A stretch of 64,000 bases of DNA, from the NCBI GenBank assembly GCA_965198235.1, contig OZ240248.1, forward strand, positions 128,001-192,000, in the 5' to 3' direction. The position numbers were made by a program, and so were the translations under genes. Of this stretch, positions 26,983-33,134 are shown piece after piece; within the stretch, counting starts at the first letter, position 1, and the number at the start of each line of letters is the position of its first letter. The notes below the pieces were generated by a model. That model worked only from the letters and a program-made list of their open reading frames with translations. It was not told where the DNA came from and did no database searches. Source of the DNA: Candidatus Poribacteria bacterium. GTDB lineage: Bacteria; Poribacteria; WGA-4E; WGA-3G.

Positions 26983-27011
26983 TTGACAATTTATCTCATT
27001 TATAGCATAAT
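26983..27011 (+). promoter_or_regulatory. Sigma70-type promoter for the 983-aa ORF
   Basis: TTGACA-N17-CATAAT. Confidence 0.65.
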
Positions 27012-27199: not shown

Positions 27200-30151
27200 A
27201 TGGAATCTGTGAAGGATATTATCCAACAGTGCCATGAACAGCGACAGAAGGTCATGCAACAGCGGAAGACTATCGTTTCACCTGCTTTGTATGGGAATTA
27301 TTTTTACCATTACACAGTGCATTGTGCGCATCGGTATCCGCTGCTTTTGCATGCGCTTGAACAGGCAGATATTTCGTTTATGCCCATTGGACAGGCACCA
27401 TTCGATCGGGGTCCAGCGTATTGTGGTGGCAATCGTTTCTTAAGACGACAAGGCACACTCGACTGGAGCCCGAGGCGATGGTTTTCGTCATGGGGTATTC
27501 AGATCTATACAGGAACGCCATCTGCGCGCGACGGGGCTAACTGGCATGACATCGAGTTCACCTACAGAGCGATCCGCGACGCGCCTGATGCCGTTGTTGC
27601 ATGTGTGGACGCACTCGTCAACGCTGTTATAAATCCGCTACTCACCTTACTCAAGGGTGGAGGCTTACGGTTTTCGTGTCGAGTGCCGGACTATCTTCAT
27701 CCGAACACAACGGACGCAAGGCAATATATTCATAAGCATCTACCTGACATAGATCATACCCGCGATAGAGATATCTATGTAGACATCGTTGGGGATAAAG
27801 GCTTTACTCGTTGGGATGCCCGCTATGAAATTCTTAAGGGGAGCCTATTAGATCCGCCCATCATTTCTAAAGATGTGCTTTTTGCGTTTCTCGATGTCTT
27901 GCGAGAGTTGCTACATGAACCCGCCCCGGCATCAGAATTAGACACGATAGATGAAGCGATCGTGGATACACAGGATTTCGACGATTTTGCTGTCATAGAA
28001 TCTTTAGAAACAGAGCAAGTTGTAAATGAAAATATCCTTGCGGTGCGACGCGGTGAGCTTTCTCCGACTGGAATCAGACGACCGAAACCTATCCTTGAAA
28101 AACTGGAACGCACTGAGGCGGAGGATGAGAGGAATCTCTTTGAAGGGGAAGAACGCATTCTTGGGCTTGTCACGGGTTTGATAAGTACTGAAAAGAAACG
28201 TGAGATTGAAGCCTCCTTTCTCAATACCGTCCCTATATGTGTCAACTCTAATACCGTTTATGACGCAGAGGACGCACAGCGGTATTACGAGCGACAGGGA
28301 ATTACCGTCGGGCGATGGAAACCGCGAAACTATCGCTGGGAACAGGCGAAGGAGGAACCGCTTGCTGAACGGATGCAGAACCCTTTTGCGCATGGGAACG
28401 TCTGCGAAGATGCTGAAAGATGTGATGCGTTGGAGCAGAAGGGCGGTGATCCGAATAAAAGTATTTGCCCGAGTTGTCCCGTTTATGACGCGTGTCAAGA
28501 GCGCGGGTATCTTTCTCAATTTACTGTGCTACGGGAGAAACAGGTCATCGTATCTGATATTTCTAACCTCTTTTTGGATCGGCAGTATGAGATGTGCATT
28601 GATGCTGTGATTGAATCGGAGCGGCTCTGCATTGTCAACGATTCCGAATCGCAGATTGCGAACCTCTTTTCGGAGTGTCATCTACCGAGAGAGGTTTTGG
28701 AGGGTTGGATTACCCATTGGAACGGCTCTGCTTTAGGACGCTTCGCGAAGACGCTACTCAATGCGATTCGGATCACAGATCGACTTCATGGCGATATTGT
28801 CAAGCGTGTCCGCACAGTCGTTCAGGCATTTGAAGGTTTGGAAGGGGCTCTTATCAGCGAGATGTGTCAGGTGAATTGCCCAATCGAGAGAGATGGTGAT
28901 GAGATTGCCATAAGCATGGATGAAGCGATCCAGTTAGGGATTTTGGATGTATCCACATCCGAAAGCATCAAGAGGTTCCCAACGGTTTCTTGGAACCCGG
29001 ATTGGACATTTTGGCATCAACTGAAATCCTTTTTTTCGCACTACCCTCGCGATACGGACGCGCCTCTGTTTGTTGATGAAGGTGTGTTGAGATTCTGGTT
29101 ACCACCGGTGCTACATCAACGGGTCAAGAAACTTATATTCATGTCACCTTCGGCTTCAGAAAACCATTTAAAGCAAGCGTTCCCGGATGCGTCAGTGGCG
29201 GTGAGAGCGGTTGAGATACTGGAGGCATCGATTCAGGAGAACAGAGTTTTCCAGTTGCGGAGTGCAACACACACCGCACGCGCAATCACGAATTACGATG
29301 TCGATTGGGATGTGTATGGTCTCTCGAAAATCGGGCATCGTTTCTTTCTCAGTATCCATCGTGATATAGAAAAGCACCCAGATCGCAATCATGTTGTTAT
29401 ATCGAGTTTGGGGGCAGTTTCGATGTTAAAAGATGTGTTTGGTGGGAGGGTCCTTACCTACACGGATCTCGTCAGAGACACCTCAGAAGATGTCGCAGAT
29501 GTTGTTTGGGTAGTCGGAACGCCTTACTTTCCTCCGAGTTTTATCTGGGAACAGGCGAAAATATTGTTTGGAAACCAAGTCGAGCCGTTAAGTTATAATC
29601 TGACGATGAACCCTTATCAATTCGAAGATGAACGCATACAAGAACTCTACGAACAGAATGCTATAGGTGTACTGACACAGATTGTCCGTATCGCTGGATT
29701 CAATGAGGCATCAGATAAAACGCTGATTCTCAACACGGCTTTGCGGATACCCTCTGTCACCGACGCGCCAGAGACGGAATTGTTTGATTGGGAAGACTTC
29801 GAGATCGCTGGTGGGTTGGATGAACTTTCAGAGACGATTCGGATACGTGAGGGGTACGAGGCAGAATACGCGAACATGGATGCGTCTTGGAGCCGAAAAC
29901 GCGTTGAATATTTGCTTGGTGTTTCTAAGGCGCAAGCGAACCGCATCTTGATGAGATTGAGGGGTAGTAAACTCGAGCGGATCCCATTTCATGTGCAGAT
30001 TTTCGAGCTGCTCTCGGATGGAGAGAAAACAACATCTGAAATCCTTGAATCAATTCAGGGGAATCCGGGCTCCATTAAAAACGAACTCACCCATCTTGTA
30101 GAAATGGGTGAGATTGTCAGGATCCGGCGCGGTGTTTATGCGTTAGCATAG
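27200..30151 (+). CDS. Large hypothetical protein resembling a degenerate Prim-Pol/Cys-cluster/helicase/wHTH fusion
   Basis: 983-aa uninterrupted ORF with GGAG RBS; GIQIYTG..WHDIEF..KGGGLRF, CxxxxxC..CPSCPVYDAC, C-terminal LTHLVEMGEIVRIRRGVY winged helix. Confidence 0.6.
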   Translation: MESVKDIIQQCHEQRQKVMQQRKTIVSPALYGNYFYHYTVHCAHRYPLLLHALEQADISFMPIGQAPFDRGPAYCGGNRFLRRQGTLDWSPRRWFSSWGIQIYTGTPSARDGANWHDIEFTYRAIRDAPDAVVACVDALVNAVINPLLTLLKGGGLRFSCRVPDYLHPNTTDARQYIHKHLPDIDHTRDRDIYVDIVGDKGFTRWDARYEILKGSLLDPPIISKDVLFAFLDVLRELLHEPAPASELDTIDEAIVDTQDFDDFAVIESLETEQVVNENILAVRRGELSPTGIRRPKPILEKLERTEAEDERNLFEGEERILGLVTGLISTEKKREIEASFLNTVPICVNSNTVYDAEDAQRYYERQGITVGRWKPRNYRWEQAKEEPLAERMQNPFAHGNVCEDAERCDALEQKGGDPNKSICPSCPVYDACQERGYLSQFTVLREKQVIVSDISNLFLDRQYEMCIDAVIESERLCIVNDSESQIANLFSECHLPREVLEGWITHWNGSALGRFAKTLLNAIRITDRLHGDIVKRVRTVVQAFEGLEGALISEMCQVNCPIERDGDEIAISMDEAIQLGILDVSTSESIKRFPTVSWNPDWTFWHQLKSFFSHYPRDTDAPLFVDEGVLRFWLPPVLHQRVKKLIFMSPSASENHLKQAFPDASVAVRAVEILEASIQENRVFQLRSATHTARAITNYDVDWDVYGLSKIGHRFFLSIHRDIEKHPDRNHVVISSLGAVSMLKDVFGGRVLTYTDLVRDTSEDVADVVWVVGTPYFPPSFIWEQAKILFGNQVEPLSYNLTMNPYQFEDERIQELYEQNAIGVLTQIVRIAGFNEASDKTLILNTALRIPSVTDAPETELFDWEDFEIAGGLDELSETIRIREGYEAEYANMDASWSRKRVEYLLGVSKAQANRILMRLRGSKLERIPFHVQIFELLSDGEKTTSEILESIQGNPGSIKNELTHLVEMGEIVRIRRGVYALA

Positions 30152-30254: not shown

Positions 30255-30283
30255 TTGCAAAACCGGATTAATTGATGTATAAT
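30255..30283 (+). promoter_or_regulatory. Sigma70-type promoter with no substantial downstream CDS
   Basis: TTGCAA-N17-TATAAT preceded by an A/T tract. Confidence 0.6.
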
Positions 30284-30288
30284 TTAAA

Positions 30289-30420
30289 TATGACTGAAAT
30301 CCATTCATACATCATACGTCATCATGATTTCAGTCATACTCCAAATTCAAAAGGAGATTGGTAGAGCGCAGAGAGGAAAATTCCAGAAGCGCATCCTCTC
30401 TGCCGCTCGCCAACTCCTTC
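30289..30420 (+). ncRNA. Candidate structured ncRNA (two long hairpins)
   Basis: TATGACTGAAATC/GATTTCAGTCATA stem, then AAGGAG-ATTGGT-AGAGCG-CAGAGAGGA / TCCTCTCTG-CCGCTC-GCCAA-CTCCTT stem, starting at the predicted +1. Confidence 0.4.
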
Positions 30421-30645
30421 TTCAAGCCACCCCGGCGAATACACTCTCACATGCCCGACAGATAGGAATATTTGTTGCATCCATACTATACTAACCTAAC
30501 CCAAGTTGCTACGGACAAGATTTTAGGTATGCAGATGCCGTTTTTCATCAAAGAGGTCTGCGCAAGCCTCTATAGGAAACCTGCGGGACAATATCCGTAG
30601 AGGTTTGTCGCGTAAACTTTCAGTTTGCGCACGTGTATGCAGAAT

Positions 30646-31827
30646 CTAAAAGATTATGCTACAAAGGTGGGAACTTGGGTTATACAAATAAGCATCTGCA
30701 ATAGTTTCATTCACCGTCTCACGCCACGAATCTTCAAATAGCATCCGGAAAGACATCGTTTTATTATTGGGTGCGGTGATATTCATTGTGCCGTGTGATG
30801 TAGCGTTTCGATATGTTGTTTCTAATGTTTTAATAAGTTGCTGTTTATAGGTGGTATCGTTATTTCCTTCAAGATGTTGCCCTTTAGTTTCAAAGATGCA
30901 GAGCCTTTGCGGTCCCGTTTGACTCCGTTGGATACAGGCGATAAAGTCTGGATAGACGCGGTCACGTCGCCACCCTTGTAAAAAGTACCCCTGCCTCGCA
31001 GCAATGCGGTGCCACCATTCAATCGCGCTCTGTTTGTCTATGTAGAGTGCAAAATCTGTTTCTAAATTGTTGAATTCTGCTTCAAAGACTTGTTCAAATA
31101 GATTAAGTTGTAACGGATCCCCGTGCGGATGCATCATCGGTTTTGCCTCAGGTGTGAGGCTGACCACGAGTGTTCTTTCCAGTTGGTAGTTTAACTCGCT
31201 ATCTGTTTGCAAGTTAAACTGGATCTTTCCGGCTTCCAACTTTTCTTTGAAAACGGTCTCAGCGAGTTTATCAATGCGATCGCGCAAACGACGTTTCAGG
31301 TACTCGGAAAGATACAACCGGTGTGTATACAACGTTTCTTCGTCGACACCTTCTTCACGGTAGGCAGCGAGCGTTGCCTTCACGATGCGTGCGGCGTGCC
31401 AGGGATTTGGAAGTACATCACCCAACCGCCGGACGAAAAATGCTACCTCCAAGTTGTGTGCCGCACTTTCTTGCAACTTTTTATCAATCACCGCTTCGTC
31501 TTGGAGATGGATGGTCGCACGGATCTCTTGAAGTTGTGCCGCCTCGCCTAAGTTGATAGGTGCTACCGGACCGAGTTGATGCCAGTCGATTGCACTGAGG
31601 ATGTCGCGCTCATAATTGAGTTCCCGCCAACTTCGTCCTTGCTTATGCAGTACACGCGGCAGAAAGATGTCTATATTGCGATATTCTTGCTTGCGTTCAA
31701 TAGTCCTCTGAACACGTTCCACACCGGCACTTTCAACAAATCCACCAAGCCCGGTTAACCCCTCTGCCTCTAAACCCTTCTTGACATTGCTAACAGCTGC
31801 CCCGACTCCTTGATTGTAGCAGAAGAT
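30646..31827 (-). pseudogene. Type III restriction enzyme Res subunit, C-terminal fragment
   Basis: YFLQGWRRDRVYPDFI...FETKGQHL PD-(D/E)xK nuclease; frame is open back to IFCYNQ.. at 31827, exactly at the IS right end; no helicase N-terminal half. Confidence 0.75.
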
Positions 31828-31990
31828 TTGACATCCTCTCCAGTCTAAAGACTGGAGATTCCTTTTGTCCCTTGTAGAGACATTCCTTGGGTTTAAGCCA
31901 AGGCAACAGGGACTTCCAAACGAAAGCCCAAGGGCGGTGCCATCCGGGTAAAACCCATTGCCGCCACTACAGGGTCGCCTAAACCACCCT
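31828..31990 (-). ncRNA. Predicted TnpB omega/reRNA scaffold (5' boundary approximate)
   Basis: Overlaps the tnpB 3' end and right-end hairpin, as established for TnpB systems; guide would begin AUCUUCUGCUACAAUC. Confidence 0.55.
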
Positions 31991-33134
31991 GATACTTTCT
32001 CAAAATATTTATCGCACCTACACCGTCACGGTGATATAAGAAACCGCATTTACAGGTGTAATCACGATTATTCGGTTTCTTTCTATTGCCACACTTTGGA
32101 CAGGTCTGTGAGGTGTAAGCCTCATTAATCTGAACAACCTTGATACCTAATACCTTGGCTTTATAGGTTATCAAAAACGTAATCTTACCAAATGCCCATT
32201 GATGTAGGCGTTGATTGGCACTCTTACCGTAATCAATATTATCACGTATGCCAGTTAAGTTACCGAGAACAATGGTACCGATGCCCTTAGTGTGGCAATA
32301 TTTCAGGAACTTGGTGGTATGTTTATGGAGTGCGTCTTTGATTTGGTTGTCAATCTTTGTGATGCGTTTCCATTTTCTGCGTGTGAGTTTCCACCAGCGT
32401 TTGGAATGGCGTTTACACCTGCTAATAGCATGGCTGAATTCAGATAGCACTTTATTACGATGCCGGTATAGCGAACGTATATACCGTCCATTGTAAATAT
32501 GTGTATCAGTTTCATCATGACTGACTATAGGATGTATCTCGCCAATATCTACACCTATAACACCTTCGCCCGTCTCAGTGTCTTCCGTCTCATATCTGTA
32601 GGAAAAATGCAACTCCCATTGGCCGTAGTTGTAGACTAAATCAATAGTTGCGATATGTTCCGTTTCGGACATATTGAAATTACTTGGCAGTTGTATATCT
32701 AACTTAGGTCTACCAGCACCCATTGAAAGTTCAACGCGTTTGCCAAACAAACTACCCTCCACAAAAGTAATCGCAGATTTCAACCAACGCGTCGTCATAT
32801 AGTTCTTACGTTTGTTAGGAGGCTTAGGTTTCTCTATGACACCACTCTTTTTCAAGGCAGAATAAGACTTCCACGATTTGAAGTATTGCTTTCTGATGGC
32901 TTGAATACTCTGTGAATGCAGTGGCTGTGATTTAGACAACCGCTTATCTACCCAACCCTCACAATCATTTCCGAACCAGAAATCATGATGCGCATGTGGG
33001 TACCCACGATGCCACTGATACATATCCATCTGATGCAAACACTCGTTCCACACTTCTGCCGATGCAGCATTTATTTCGGAAAACACAGCCTGTTTGTCTA
33101 CTTTCAGAATCTTCGTTCTGTGGAATGTTGCCAT
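31893..33134 (-). CDS. tnpB: RNA-guided endonuclease TnpB
   Basis: GVDIGE (RuvC-I), IVLGNL, INEAYTSQTCPKCG..CKCG zinc ribbon, HRDGVGAINI (RuvC-III). Confidence 0.95.
   Translation of the reverse strand: MATFHRTKILKVDKQAVFSEINAASAEVWNECLHQMDMYQWHRGYPHAHHDFWFGNDCEGWVDKRLSKSQPLHSQSIQAIRKQYFKSWKSYSALKKSGVIEKPKPPNKRKNYMTTRWLKSAITFVEGSLFGKRVELSMGAGRPKLDIQLPSNFNMSETEHIATIDLVYNYGQWELHFSYRYETEDTETGEGVIGVDIGEIHPIVSHDETDTHIYNGRYIRSLYRHRNKVLSEFSHAISRCKRHSKRWWKLTRRKWKRITKIDNQIKDALHKHTTKFLKYCHTKGIGTIVLGNLTGIRDNIDYGKSANQRLHQWAFGKITFLITYKAKVLGIKVVQINEAYTSQTCPKCGNRKKPNNRDYTCKCGFLYHRDGVGAINILRKYQGGLGDPVVAAMGFTRMAPPLGFRLEVPVALA

Follow-up and report, generated by a model that had tools for sequence, protein, structure and literature searches.

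Prim-Pol proteins (PF09250), which belong to the archaeo-eukaryotic primases (AEPs), combine primase and polymerase functions and occur in plasmids, phages and integrated elements, and DinG/XPD (Rad3-like) helicases, members of superfamily 2 (SF2), possess a Cys triad that ligates a [4Fe-4S] cluster. Features of both were found in an open reading frame (ORF) of Candidatus Poribacteria, an uncultivated sponge-symbiont lineage. The ORF lies in a 64,000-nucleotide stretch of contig OZ240248.1 (positions 128,001 to 192,000; assembly GCA_965198235.1), which we refer to as the window, and its 983-residue product is hereafter called the query. The ORF was intact and located exactly where the original prediction, made from the sequence alone, had placed a stand-alone protein resembling a catalytically rewired primase-helicase (27200-30151, + strand). 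Our analysis suggests that the query is probably a domesticated, motor-dead descendant of a replication-type primase-helicase fusion protein, whose ancestor would have joined a Prim-Pol-like (AEP) primase to a DinG/XPD-like SF2 helicase with a four-Cys insert and to a C-terminal helix-turn-helix (HTH) and winged helix. Among the closest described systems are mobile-element fusions of AEP, PriCT, helicase and winged helix, in which the winged helix was proposed to recognize origins (Kazlauskas et al. 2018, PMC5862659).

The helicase partners of AEPs named in the accessible part of that survey include RepA, DUF927, DUF3987, VirE, D5-like superfamily 3 helicases, MCM and a group remotely similar to SF2. 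A DinG/XPD-type partner is not among the fusions described there, and within the same portion of the literature the combination of a Prim-Pol/BT4734-type primase, a DinG/XPD-like Cys-cluster helicase and an HTH was not found described. Members of the present family resemble the mobile-element fusions, as these are presented in the same text (PMC5862659), in that an AEP at the N-terminus is followed by a helicase and, at the C-terminus, by a winged helix, and distant members also possess BT4734-like_N and PriCT_2 domains; in contrast to these fusions, the query is chromosomal, syntenic and motor-dead. A second type of AEP, the BT4734-like (VirE_N) proteins, which include CRISPR-associated PrimPol type B, occupies the same N-terminal slot in relatives of the query. 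According to the available part of PMC11724360, the motif-II His of these AEPs is replaced by a basic residue (Lys), and the family likewise has a basic residue, Arg, at this position. However, the query had no Pfam match to PF08800, the two types of N-domain had no sequence similarity in the pair of proteins compared below, and the relationship is a module swap rather than descent.

The query and its relatives constitute an undescribed family that is expanded to many copies in related genomes, and a literature search returned no paper on a Prim-Pol plus DinG/XPD-like family in Poribacteria. When the query was scanned, Pfam gave only sub-threshold C-terminal winged-helix matches, NCBIfam no match, PADLOC only weak AbiEi winged-helix matches and PHROGs nothing useful; no PDB chain was matched significantly by either sequence or profile. 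Among 8000 candidates scored, 1088 were homologues of the query at E≤1e-3, and all organism names among the homologue rows listed were Candidatus Poribacteria. When 1.84 billion representatives were searched with a profile, 600 clusters were obtained at E≤1e-3 (249 at E≤1e-30), and the family thus comprises at least 600 clusters at 50% identity. Based on identity to the query, we divided the sequences into clade A (≥60%), which includes the query, clade B (38-60%) and distant relatives (<38%); the last were derived from metagenome contigs and one Acidimicrobiaceae record.

The helicase-derived part of the query was recognized through its relatives. Distant relatives shared profile positions ~295-950 and carried the strings ADTGxGK, PTxxLAxE, DE, MSATLD and QAIGRARL, which we take to be SF2 motifs I, Ia, II, III and VI, respectively. 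Since Pfam matches in these relatives were only sub-threshold (ResIII in 8/15, DEAD in 6/15), we compared the family with DinG/XPD-type proteins directly; the Pfam DEAD_2 model (PF06733) itself had no listed match to the family. When 28 motif-intact relatives were aligned by hhalign with 14 DEAD_2-bearing (DinG/XPD-type) ORFs from 14 genomes of the order, the match covered nearly the full length (95% probability, P 4e-8, 547 columns), and motifs I, Ia, II, III and VI lined up. The same relatives matched 14 ResIII-type ORFs at 39%, the baseline of DinG against ResIII was 42%, and a reversed control gave P 0.42. The family differs from DinG/XPD helicases in that its helicase module is fused to primase and HTH domains. 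Besides, the query lacks any ATPase or helicase motif, and direct similarity was gone when the helicase-like region of clade A was compared with DinG alone (P 0.16), with P 0.019 for clades A and B together.

Loss of the motor could be followed across the three groups. Among the sequences covering each region, motif I (G.GK[STDN]) was present in 0/79 members of clade A, 22/59 of clade B and 53/64 of the distant group; the corresponding values were 0/79, 18/62 and 44/81 for motif II (hhDE), 0/79, 5/59 and 58/83 for motif III (SAT), and 0/79, 8/61 and 70/79 for motif VI (Q..GR). In view of these counts, the strings GLISTEKK (residues ~326-333) and IVND (478-481) of the query, which had been pointed out as lying where Walker A and B would fall, are true degenerate Walker A and B positions, their counterparts in the aligned relatives being GxGK[ST] and hhDE, respectively. 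In a tree built from residues 316-983 (92 sequences thinned to <80% identity, midpoint root), the Poribacteria-type copies fell into one group (clades A plus B, support 0.88) nested within motif-bearing relatives. Within it, clade A was a derived tip lineage (support 0.99), and one lineage of clade B (support 1.0) retained motifs I and II. Of the 53 distant tips, 28 had all four motifs, and none of the 39 Poribacteria-type tips did. The motifs are therefore intact only in relatives with less than 38% identity, and the close homologues are not ordinary Rep proteins with intact motifs. The proposed descent from a primase-helicase is supported both by this homology to motif-bearing relatives and by the Prim-Pol profile match described below.

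The Cys cluster was retained while the motor was lost. The five Cys residues quoted in the original prediction (C402, C408, C423, C426 and C432, followed by GYLSQF) were all present, and four of them (C402, C423, C426 and C432) were nearly universal, being kept in 79/79 clade-A, 57/58 clade-B and 73/75 distant sequences; C408 was specific to the Poribacteria clades. As in DinG/XPD helicases, the cluster is located between the positions of motifs Ia and II, and the CxxCx5C-GYxSQ stretch of the family aligned to the C-x4-C-x5-C-FYF stretch of DinG-type ORFs, i.e., to the DinG triad. The spacing differs, C-x20-C-x2-C-x5-C in the family versus C-x4-C-x5-C in the DinG type. A weak WhiB match to this region (E 0.45) had the C...CxxCx5C pattern in common. 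The alignment to the DinG triad agrees with the suggestion that the module is a helicase Fe-S-type insert, and the four Cys residues probably hold a [4Fe-4S] cluster, with a zinc site as an alternative. We also observed that DinG-type ORFs of the order (L025-L038) had the C-x4-C-x5-C triad, and that the four inspected had zero or one far-upstream Cys before it. E. coli DinG has a four-Cys cluster pattern, from which the cluster ligation of these ORFs may differ.

The motor-dead protein was found to be under purifying selection. Pairwise comparison of nine syntenic orthologs (36 pairs) gave an overall ratio of nonsynonymous to synonymous substitutions (dN/dS) of 0.17, with 0.13 for the N-domain, 0.27 for the linker, 0.17 and 0.19 for the two helicase-like halves and 0.14 for the C-terminus. 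The decisive change in the query is thus complete loss of the helicase motor, with the Cys shell and the DNA-binding end still under selection. The ORF was intact, with ~1000 residues, in the 10 loci examined, and argG adjoined the clade-A ortholog divergently in loci of 7 out of 9 relatives. The idea of a domesticated replication-protein derivative fits a stand-alone chromosomal gene on which purifying selection acts. Also, 37-75% of sampled words were present in four sponge metatranscriptome runs of one study, and metatranscriptome contigs at least 99% alike covered most of the ORF, which is consistent with transcription.

The N-terminal domain is Prim-Pol-like. As reference we used an alignment of eight genuine Prim-Pol domains from other families of the phylum. 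The Poribacteria-type domain matched it with 84% probability (P 7.8e-6, 110 columns) and the whole N-region with 82% (P 1.1e-5, 140 columns), over positions 3-156 of 172, i.e., nearly the whole domain and in the same order of motifs. The score of this match (40.3) exceeded all 80 shuffled controls (maximum of 18.2 in 40 column shuffles and 27.5 in 40 block shuffles); a reversed profile gave P 0.081 and BT4734-type domains P 0.0045 against Prim-Pol. As a lead only, the three best named neighbors of ortholog residues 1-300 in Atlas features were all Prim-Pol, at 0.88. All strings quoted from this domain (GIQIYTG, WHDIEF with D117 and E119, LKGGGLRF with R157, and VDIVG with D195) were found in the ORF, and the motif mapping proposed for them proved exact in the hhalign alignment, in which D117/E119 correspond to DxD, R157 to the His of motif II, D195 to motif III and P219-P220 to PPS. 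The query thus has in common with Prim-Pol AEPs a G-I-x-x-x-T-G string that precedes motif I, as well as D-h-E as motif I, S-G-G-h-(basic) as motif II and h-D/E-h-x-G as motif III, followed by PP. It differs from them in that the Pfam model does not match, the motif-II His is an invariant Arg, and a 13-residue insert with an invariant W-D-x-R-Y-E follows motif III; in addition, the motif-III acid is relaxed in clade A.

The term "catalytically rewired" was overstated. DxE fits the motif-I definition of AEPs, DhD/E, given in the accessible parts of PMC5862659 and PMC11724360. Arg in place of His is not a change of the query but a property of the whole family, R157 being found in 78/78 clade-A, 69/69 clade-B and 27/28 distant sequences, the last including relatives with intact helicases (His occurred in one distant member). 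The N-domain, as judged from these alignments, is a family-typical Prim-Pol variant and not a rewired one. Other positions were less uniform. In clade A, D117 was kept in 77/77 and E119 in 75/77 sequences; in clade B, the second motif-I acid was acidic in 39 of 69. The motif-III position was acidic in 41/78, 59/69 and 28/31 sequences of clades A, B and the distant group, respectively, and the replacements in clade A were R (14), K (13), H (5) and others. Within the family-specific insert, D206 was conserved in 78/78, 69/69 and 30/31 and R208 in 78/78, 69/69 and 31/31.

The N-terminal module was exchanged within the family. BT4734-like_N occupied the N-terminal slot in 14 of 36 distant relatives, with PriCT_2 also present in 10 of 36. 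Two proteins, P0160 and P0179, shared 49% identity in their helicase and HTH parts (837 residues), and their N-termini (~305 residues) had no BLASTP similarity, which indicates that the N-module was swapped; members with Prim-Pol-type and BT4734-type domains interleaved in the tree. A BT4734-type origin of the N-domain of the query was considered and rejected (hhalign P 0.076 and 0.039), P0160 and P0179 representing a module swap.

These data bear on the possibility that the protein is still an enzyme, an active primase/polymerase for chromosomal repriming or repair with the dead helicase shell and HTH serving for DNA delivery. The query retains D117, E119, R157, D195 and D206, its N-domain has the lowest dN/dS of all regions, and the motif-II Arg is probably compatible with activity because it also occurs in relatives with intact helicases. 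However, 37 of 78 clade-A sequences have another residue in place of the motif-III acid, and 30 of 69 clade-B sequences have a non-acidic residue at the second acidic position of motif I; since these acids are relaxed by clade, catalysis is not a family-wide selected trait, and we regard this explanation as doubtful. As all four candidate residues D117, E119, R157 and D195 are kept, the N-domain of the query may still bind nucleotides or add a few, but catalysis is unlikely to be its conserved role because the motif-III acid was lost in nearly half of the clade.

With regard to the C-terminus, the winged helix that had been proposed for the query was weak in the query itself and stronger in relatives, and the HTH before it could be recognized by eye only. 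In the query, AbiEi_4 matched residues 963-983 (E 6e-4, 20.3 bits versus a cut-off of 25) and HTH_5 gave E 0.063; among relatives, AbiEi_4 was found in 10/15 (best E 8.8e-7) and HTH_23 in 12/36. The query therefore resembles AbiEi antitoxins of type IV toxin-antitoxin/abortive infection systems in its C-terminal winged helix, and an ortholog is annotated as an AbiEi-domain protein in one database record. It differs from them in that only ~20-50 residues match, below the curated cut-off, the models matched have 198-280 positions and the query is about four to five times longer. Besides, no adjacent ORF belonged to a Pfam family of the AbiEii partner; argG is upstream and an ORF without Pfam or NCBIfam family is downstream.

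The family was strongly expanded in one genus. In a whole-genome search, 23 of 24 further genomes from this genus had the family, compared with none of 16 genomes of other genera of the same order (seven genera searched). Counting of paralogs, which had been suggested in the original prediction, showed one full copy in the genome of the window and 7, 8, 9, 12 and 13 copies without internal stops in five near-complete relatives, some in tandem arrays of four. One such array (L012 4625-17634; G016:C1, ~2.56 Mb) had four paralogs of 1155, 1160, 816 and 768 residues on one strand, flanked by genes for a BNR-repeat sulfatase-modifying enzyme, PhyH and PLD on one side and by TnpB on the other. Most clade-B paralogs had two additional inserts of ~70 and ~55 residues (A1 columns ~290-390 and ~710-770) without counterpart in clade A, the first of which lies between the Prim-Pol domain and the helicase, the place of PriCT_2 in other relatives. 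In addition to its full copy, the genome of the window had a 152-residue ORF (L002 1411-1869; G000:C1, ~4.80 Mb) that corresponds to only the C-terminal HTH and winged-helix end of a clade-B-type paralog, is 50% identical to query residues 866-982 and has a TnpB fragment next to it. This ORF could be what is left of a deleted paralog or else code for a DNA-binding protein in its own right, and similar short proteins were present among representative clusters too (e.g., P0188, P0196 and P0224).

Such an expansion raises the possibility of an anti-mobile-element factor, i.e., inert initiator look-alikes that bind origins or replisome parts of invading plasmids or phages with related active primase-helicases and block their replication. 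The genus-restricted set of 7-13 intact paralogs with tandem arrays, the faster divergence of the protein (orthologs were 72-77% identical where argG was 93-96% identical), the presence of active-type relatives in metagenomes and the AbiEi-type winged helix are in line with such a function, as is the recurrence of BT4734/VirE-type AEP domains in defense systems described in the available part of PMC11724360. Nevertheless, PADLOC matched only the weak winged helix of the query, neighbors of this copy and of the paralogs examined were metabolic rather than defense genes, only one copy was kept in the genome of the window, and dN/dS of 0.17 gave no sign of an arms race at the scale of the gene. 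We consider this explanation unlikely. A still bolder version, to which we assign a low probability, is that the chromosome-captured, progressively motor-stripped family (~10 copies) would represent a new class of proteins for immunity or control. These inert mimics of initiators would recognize, and jam or report, replication origins or forks of invaders equipped with the active version, with the window copy as the most derived, argG-linked member, perhaps acting together with a conserved 3' hairpin RNA.

That the gene is a decaying, functionless relic with a frame open by chance is very unlikely. The loss of catalytic motifs, the apparently split ortholog in one relative (844 + 219 residues) and the 152-residue remnant of another paralog in the genome of the window could be read in this way, but the ORF is intact in 10 loci, dN/dS is 0.13-0.19 in every structured domain, many positions are invariant, promoter boxes are conserved and metatranscriptome contigs cover the ORF. 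A functional Rep, the replication initiator of a mobile element such as an integrated plasmid or phage, which the architecture shared with mobile-element primase-helicases (PMC5862659, accessible part) and a TnpB gene 1.7 kb downstream might suggest, can be dismissed almost entirely, given the loss of all four helicase motifs, the same place beside argG in 7/9 loci, the absence of an integrase nearby, the absence of genes of phages or plasmids in the surroundings of both this copy and the paralogs examined, and the lack of a match in phage, plasmid or viral-contig collections.

We therefore favor the domesticated, motor-dead descendant as the most probable explanation. Such a protein would no longer hydrolyze ATP or unwind DNA and would work as a DNA-binding scaffold, in which the HTH and winged helix could give sequence-specific binding, like the origin-recognition modules of mobile-element primase-helicases, and the Cys cluster together with the RecA-like shell might hold single-stranded or forked DNA without translocation. 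We speculate that its role is either control of, or interference with, DNA elements replicated by related active proteins, or regulation of a chromosomal target.

Several observations weigh against this explanation. The query copy itself keeps all candidate catalytic residues of the N-domain, Pfam AEP models did not match the query, a six-frame search with PF09250 found nothing in 56 genomes of the genus, and, when 39 diverse members were scanned, no AEP family was among the 25 families shown (out of 64). The link of the query to DinG is transitive, via relatives found by HMMER, and the AEP and RecA-like folds are predicted from profile comparisons only; the motif counts were obtained with regular expressions on an HMM alignment, and the three identity groups consist of related, non-independent sequences with some fragments. 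A mobile-element origin of the distant relatives would follow from the AEP-fusion literature (PMC5862659, as far as accessible). Yet in a tblastn search of P0179 against phage and plasmid collections matches were confined to the AEP/PriCT part, and scans of viral contigs (A6 and A1 patterns) and species genomes (A6 patterns) found no relatives, which is weak evidence of absence because two short peptide patterns were used per scan. Finally, no functional context was found, and DNA carry-over may contribute to the metatranscriptome contigs.

Table 1. Features of the query ORF and its flanks (window coordinates; residue numbers refer to the query).
Feature	Position	Strand	Description
Upstream promoter-like site	26983..27011	+	TTGACA-17-CATAAT; 11/12 consensus; ~190 nt before start codon; divergent argG/ORF intergenic region
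Intact 983-aa ORF (P0001)	27200..30151	+	ATG start; clade-A member of the Prim-Pol + DinG/XPD-like helicase + HTH/winged-helix family
Prim-Pol-like AEP domain	27353..27895	+	Residues ~52-232; hhalign versus Prim-Pol domains
Motifs of the Prim-Pol-like domain			I, D117-I-E119; II, G153-x-G155-x-R157 (Arg for His); III, V194-D195
Family-specific insert in the Prim-Pol-like domain			W205-D206-A-R208-Y-E
Helicase-derived region	28145..29779	+	Residues ~316-860; motifs I, II, III and VI lost; HMMER homology to motif-bearing relatives
Degenerate Walker A/motif I	28172..28198	+	T325-G-L-I-S-T-E-K-K333; aligns to GxGK[ST] of relatives
Cys cluster	28403..28519	+	C402-x20-C423-x2-C426-x5-C432, then G436-Y-L-S-Q440; putative [4Fe-4S]-type insert
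Degenerate Walker B/motif II	28628..28651	+	C477-I-V-N-D-S-E-S484; aligns to hhDE of relatives
Probable HTH and winged helix	29885..30148	+	HTH ~896-922 (by eye); winged helix ~927-983, AbiEi_4/ArsR-like (Pfam)
Downstream promoter-like site	30255..30283	+	TTGCAA-17-TATAAT; 10/12 match; downstream of stop; conserved in orthologous loci
Two strong hairpins	30289..30419	.	30289-30338 (13-bp perfect stem) and ~30351-30419 (long stem); between ORF and convergent 358-aa ORF

The flanks of the ORF (Table 1) were analyzed with regard to promoters and structured RNA. In 7 of 8 loci, the argG/ORF intergenic region had 71-81% identity to L001, and both hexamers of the upstream promoter-like site were kept in the three orthologous loci inspected. 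The claim that the gene has its own promoter is thus supported by a conserved site, but not by the number of promoter-like sites in the region, which was not above chance (9 versus 7.2 ± 3.2 in shuffles). Similarly, of the structured non-coding segments said to flank the ORF on both sides, the downstream one was clearly structured (z -8.1; 0/200 shuffles as stable), but the 5' leader was not unusual (z -1.49). The longer hairpin was kept in 8/8 syntenic loci; covariation was too thin to call, with compensatory pairs at 2 of 28 and a covariation term near 0. It was single-copy per genome and, in the 4 of 5 genomes that had it, always adjoined the clade-A ortholog. Its place between two convergent genes would suit a terminator or a small RNA, and for a locus-specific, single-copy hairpin in such a position the suggested role as RNA partner of the protein was not supported. 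Nothing in the 20-40 kb part of the window exceeded the Rfam threshold, SCARNA7 and HgcC being far below their gathering scores. The weak HgcC match (31815-31959, - strand, E 0.18) overlaps the 3' end of the TnpB gene, which is the expected place of a guide (omega) RNA.

A 36-nt repeat with internal hairpin potential was located at 30557-30592 of the window. It had 30 matches at E≤0.01 in the genome of the window (G000), some of them partial, and three full copies of 141 nt around it were present there; it looks like a REP- or MITE-like element. Metatranscriptome contigs broke at 30557-30592, with unrelated continuations, because of this dispersed repeat and not because of RNA ends.

One clade-A ortholog (G006:C1:1522004-1525026) was apparently split into frames of 844 and 219 residues, possibly through a frameshift or through an error of assembly. 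Fifteen other relatives had the match in a single frame, complete in 14 and ended by the contig end in one (G011).

Upstream neighbors of the ORF were genes for a sulfatase, a MoxR ATPase and argG, and downstream a 358-residue ORF without family and TnpB were followed by metabolic genes. Neighbors of the paralogs examined were metabolic genes and TnpB. The prediction that no integrase is nearby was correct, the only two PF00589 matches (tyrosine integrases) in the genome being located at 2.97 and 3.48 Mb, megabases away from the window (0.128-0.192 Mb); a TnpB gene does lie 1.7 kb downstream. In contrast, the "decayed defence island" said to border the ORF was not confirmed, as the ORFs at 30.6-34.3 kb, to which PADLOC was not applied, matched no Pfam or NCBIfam family except TnpB. 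The 358-residue ORF (30646-31722, - strand), which likewise had no Pfam or NCBIfam family, was not found beside the ortholog in other loci within the short flanks covered. By eye, it has a PD...E-x-K-like string (YPDF ... IFETKG) near its C-terminus and might be a nuclease remnant. The TnpB gene (31893-33134, - strand) is intact and codes for 413 residues with OrfB_IS605 and Cas12f1-like TNB domains; five relatives had 2-7 matches to it at E≤1e-10, with close ones at 59-79% identity in all five. Association of the family with TnpB (in the window, in 2 of 3 paralog loci scanned and at the L002 fragment) was not counted as evidence, as each genome had 15-46 TnpB-like candidates, and close TnpB matches between paralogs were found in only 1 of 21 cases in five genomes.

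The family is unmodelled, as four HMM libraries and a search of PDB sequences detected only the weak winged helix of the query, and its expansion, confined to one genus of uncultivated sponge symbionts, makes it a lineage marker. It also provides a decay series that leads from fully motif-bearing helicases to a motor-dead protein under selection, with the Cys cluster kept throughout, and is thus a useful system for the role of an Fe-S helicase shell that cannot move. If the paralogs act against mobile elements, they would represent a new defense principle; if they are regulators, they would be a clear case of replication-protein domestication.

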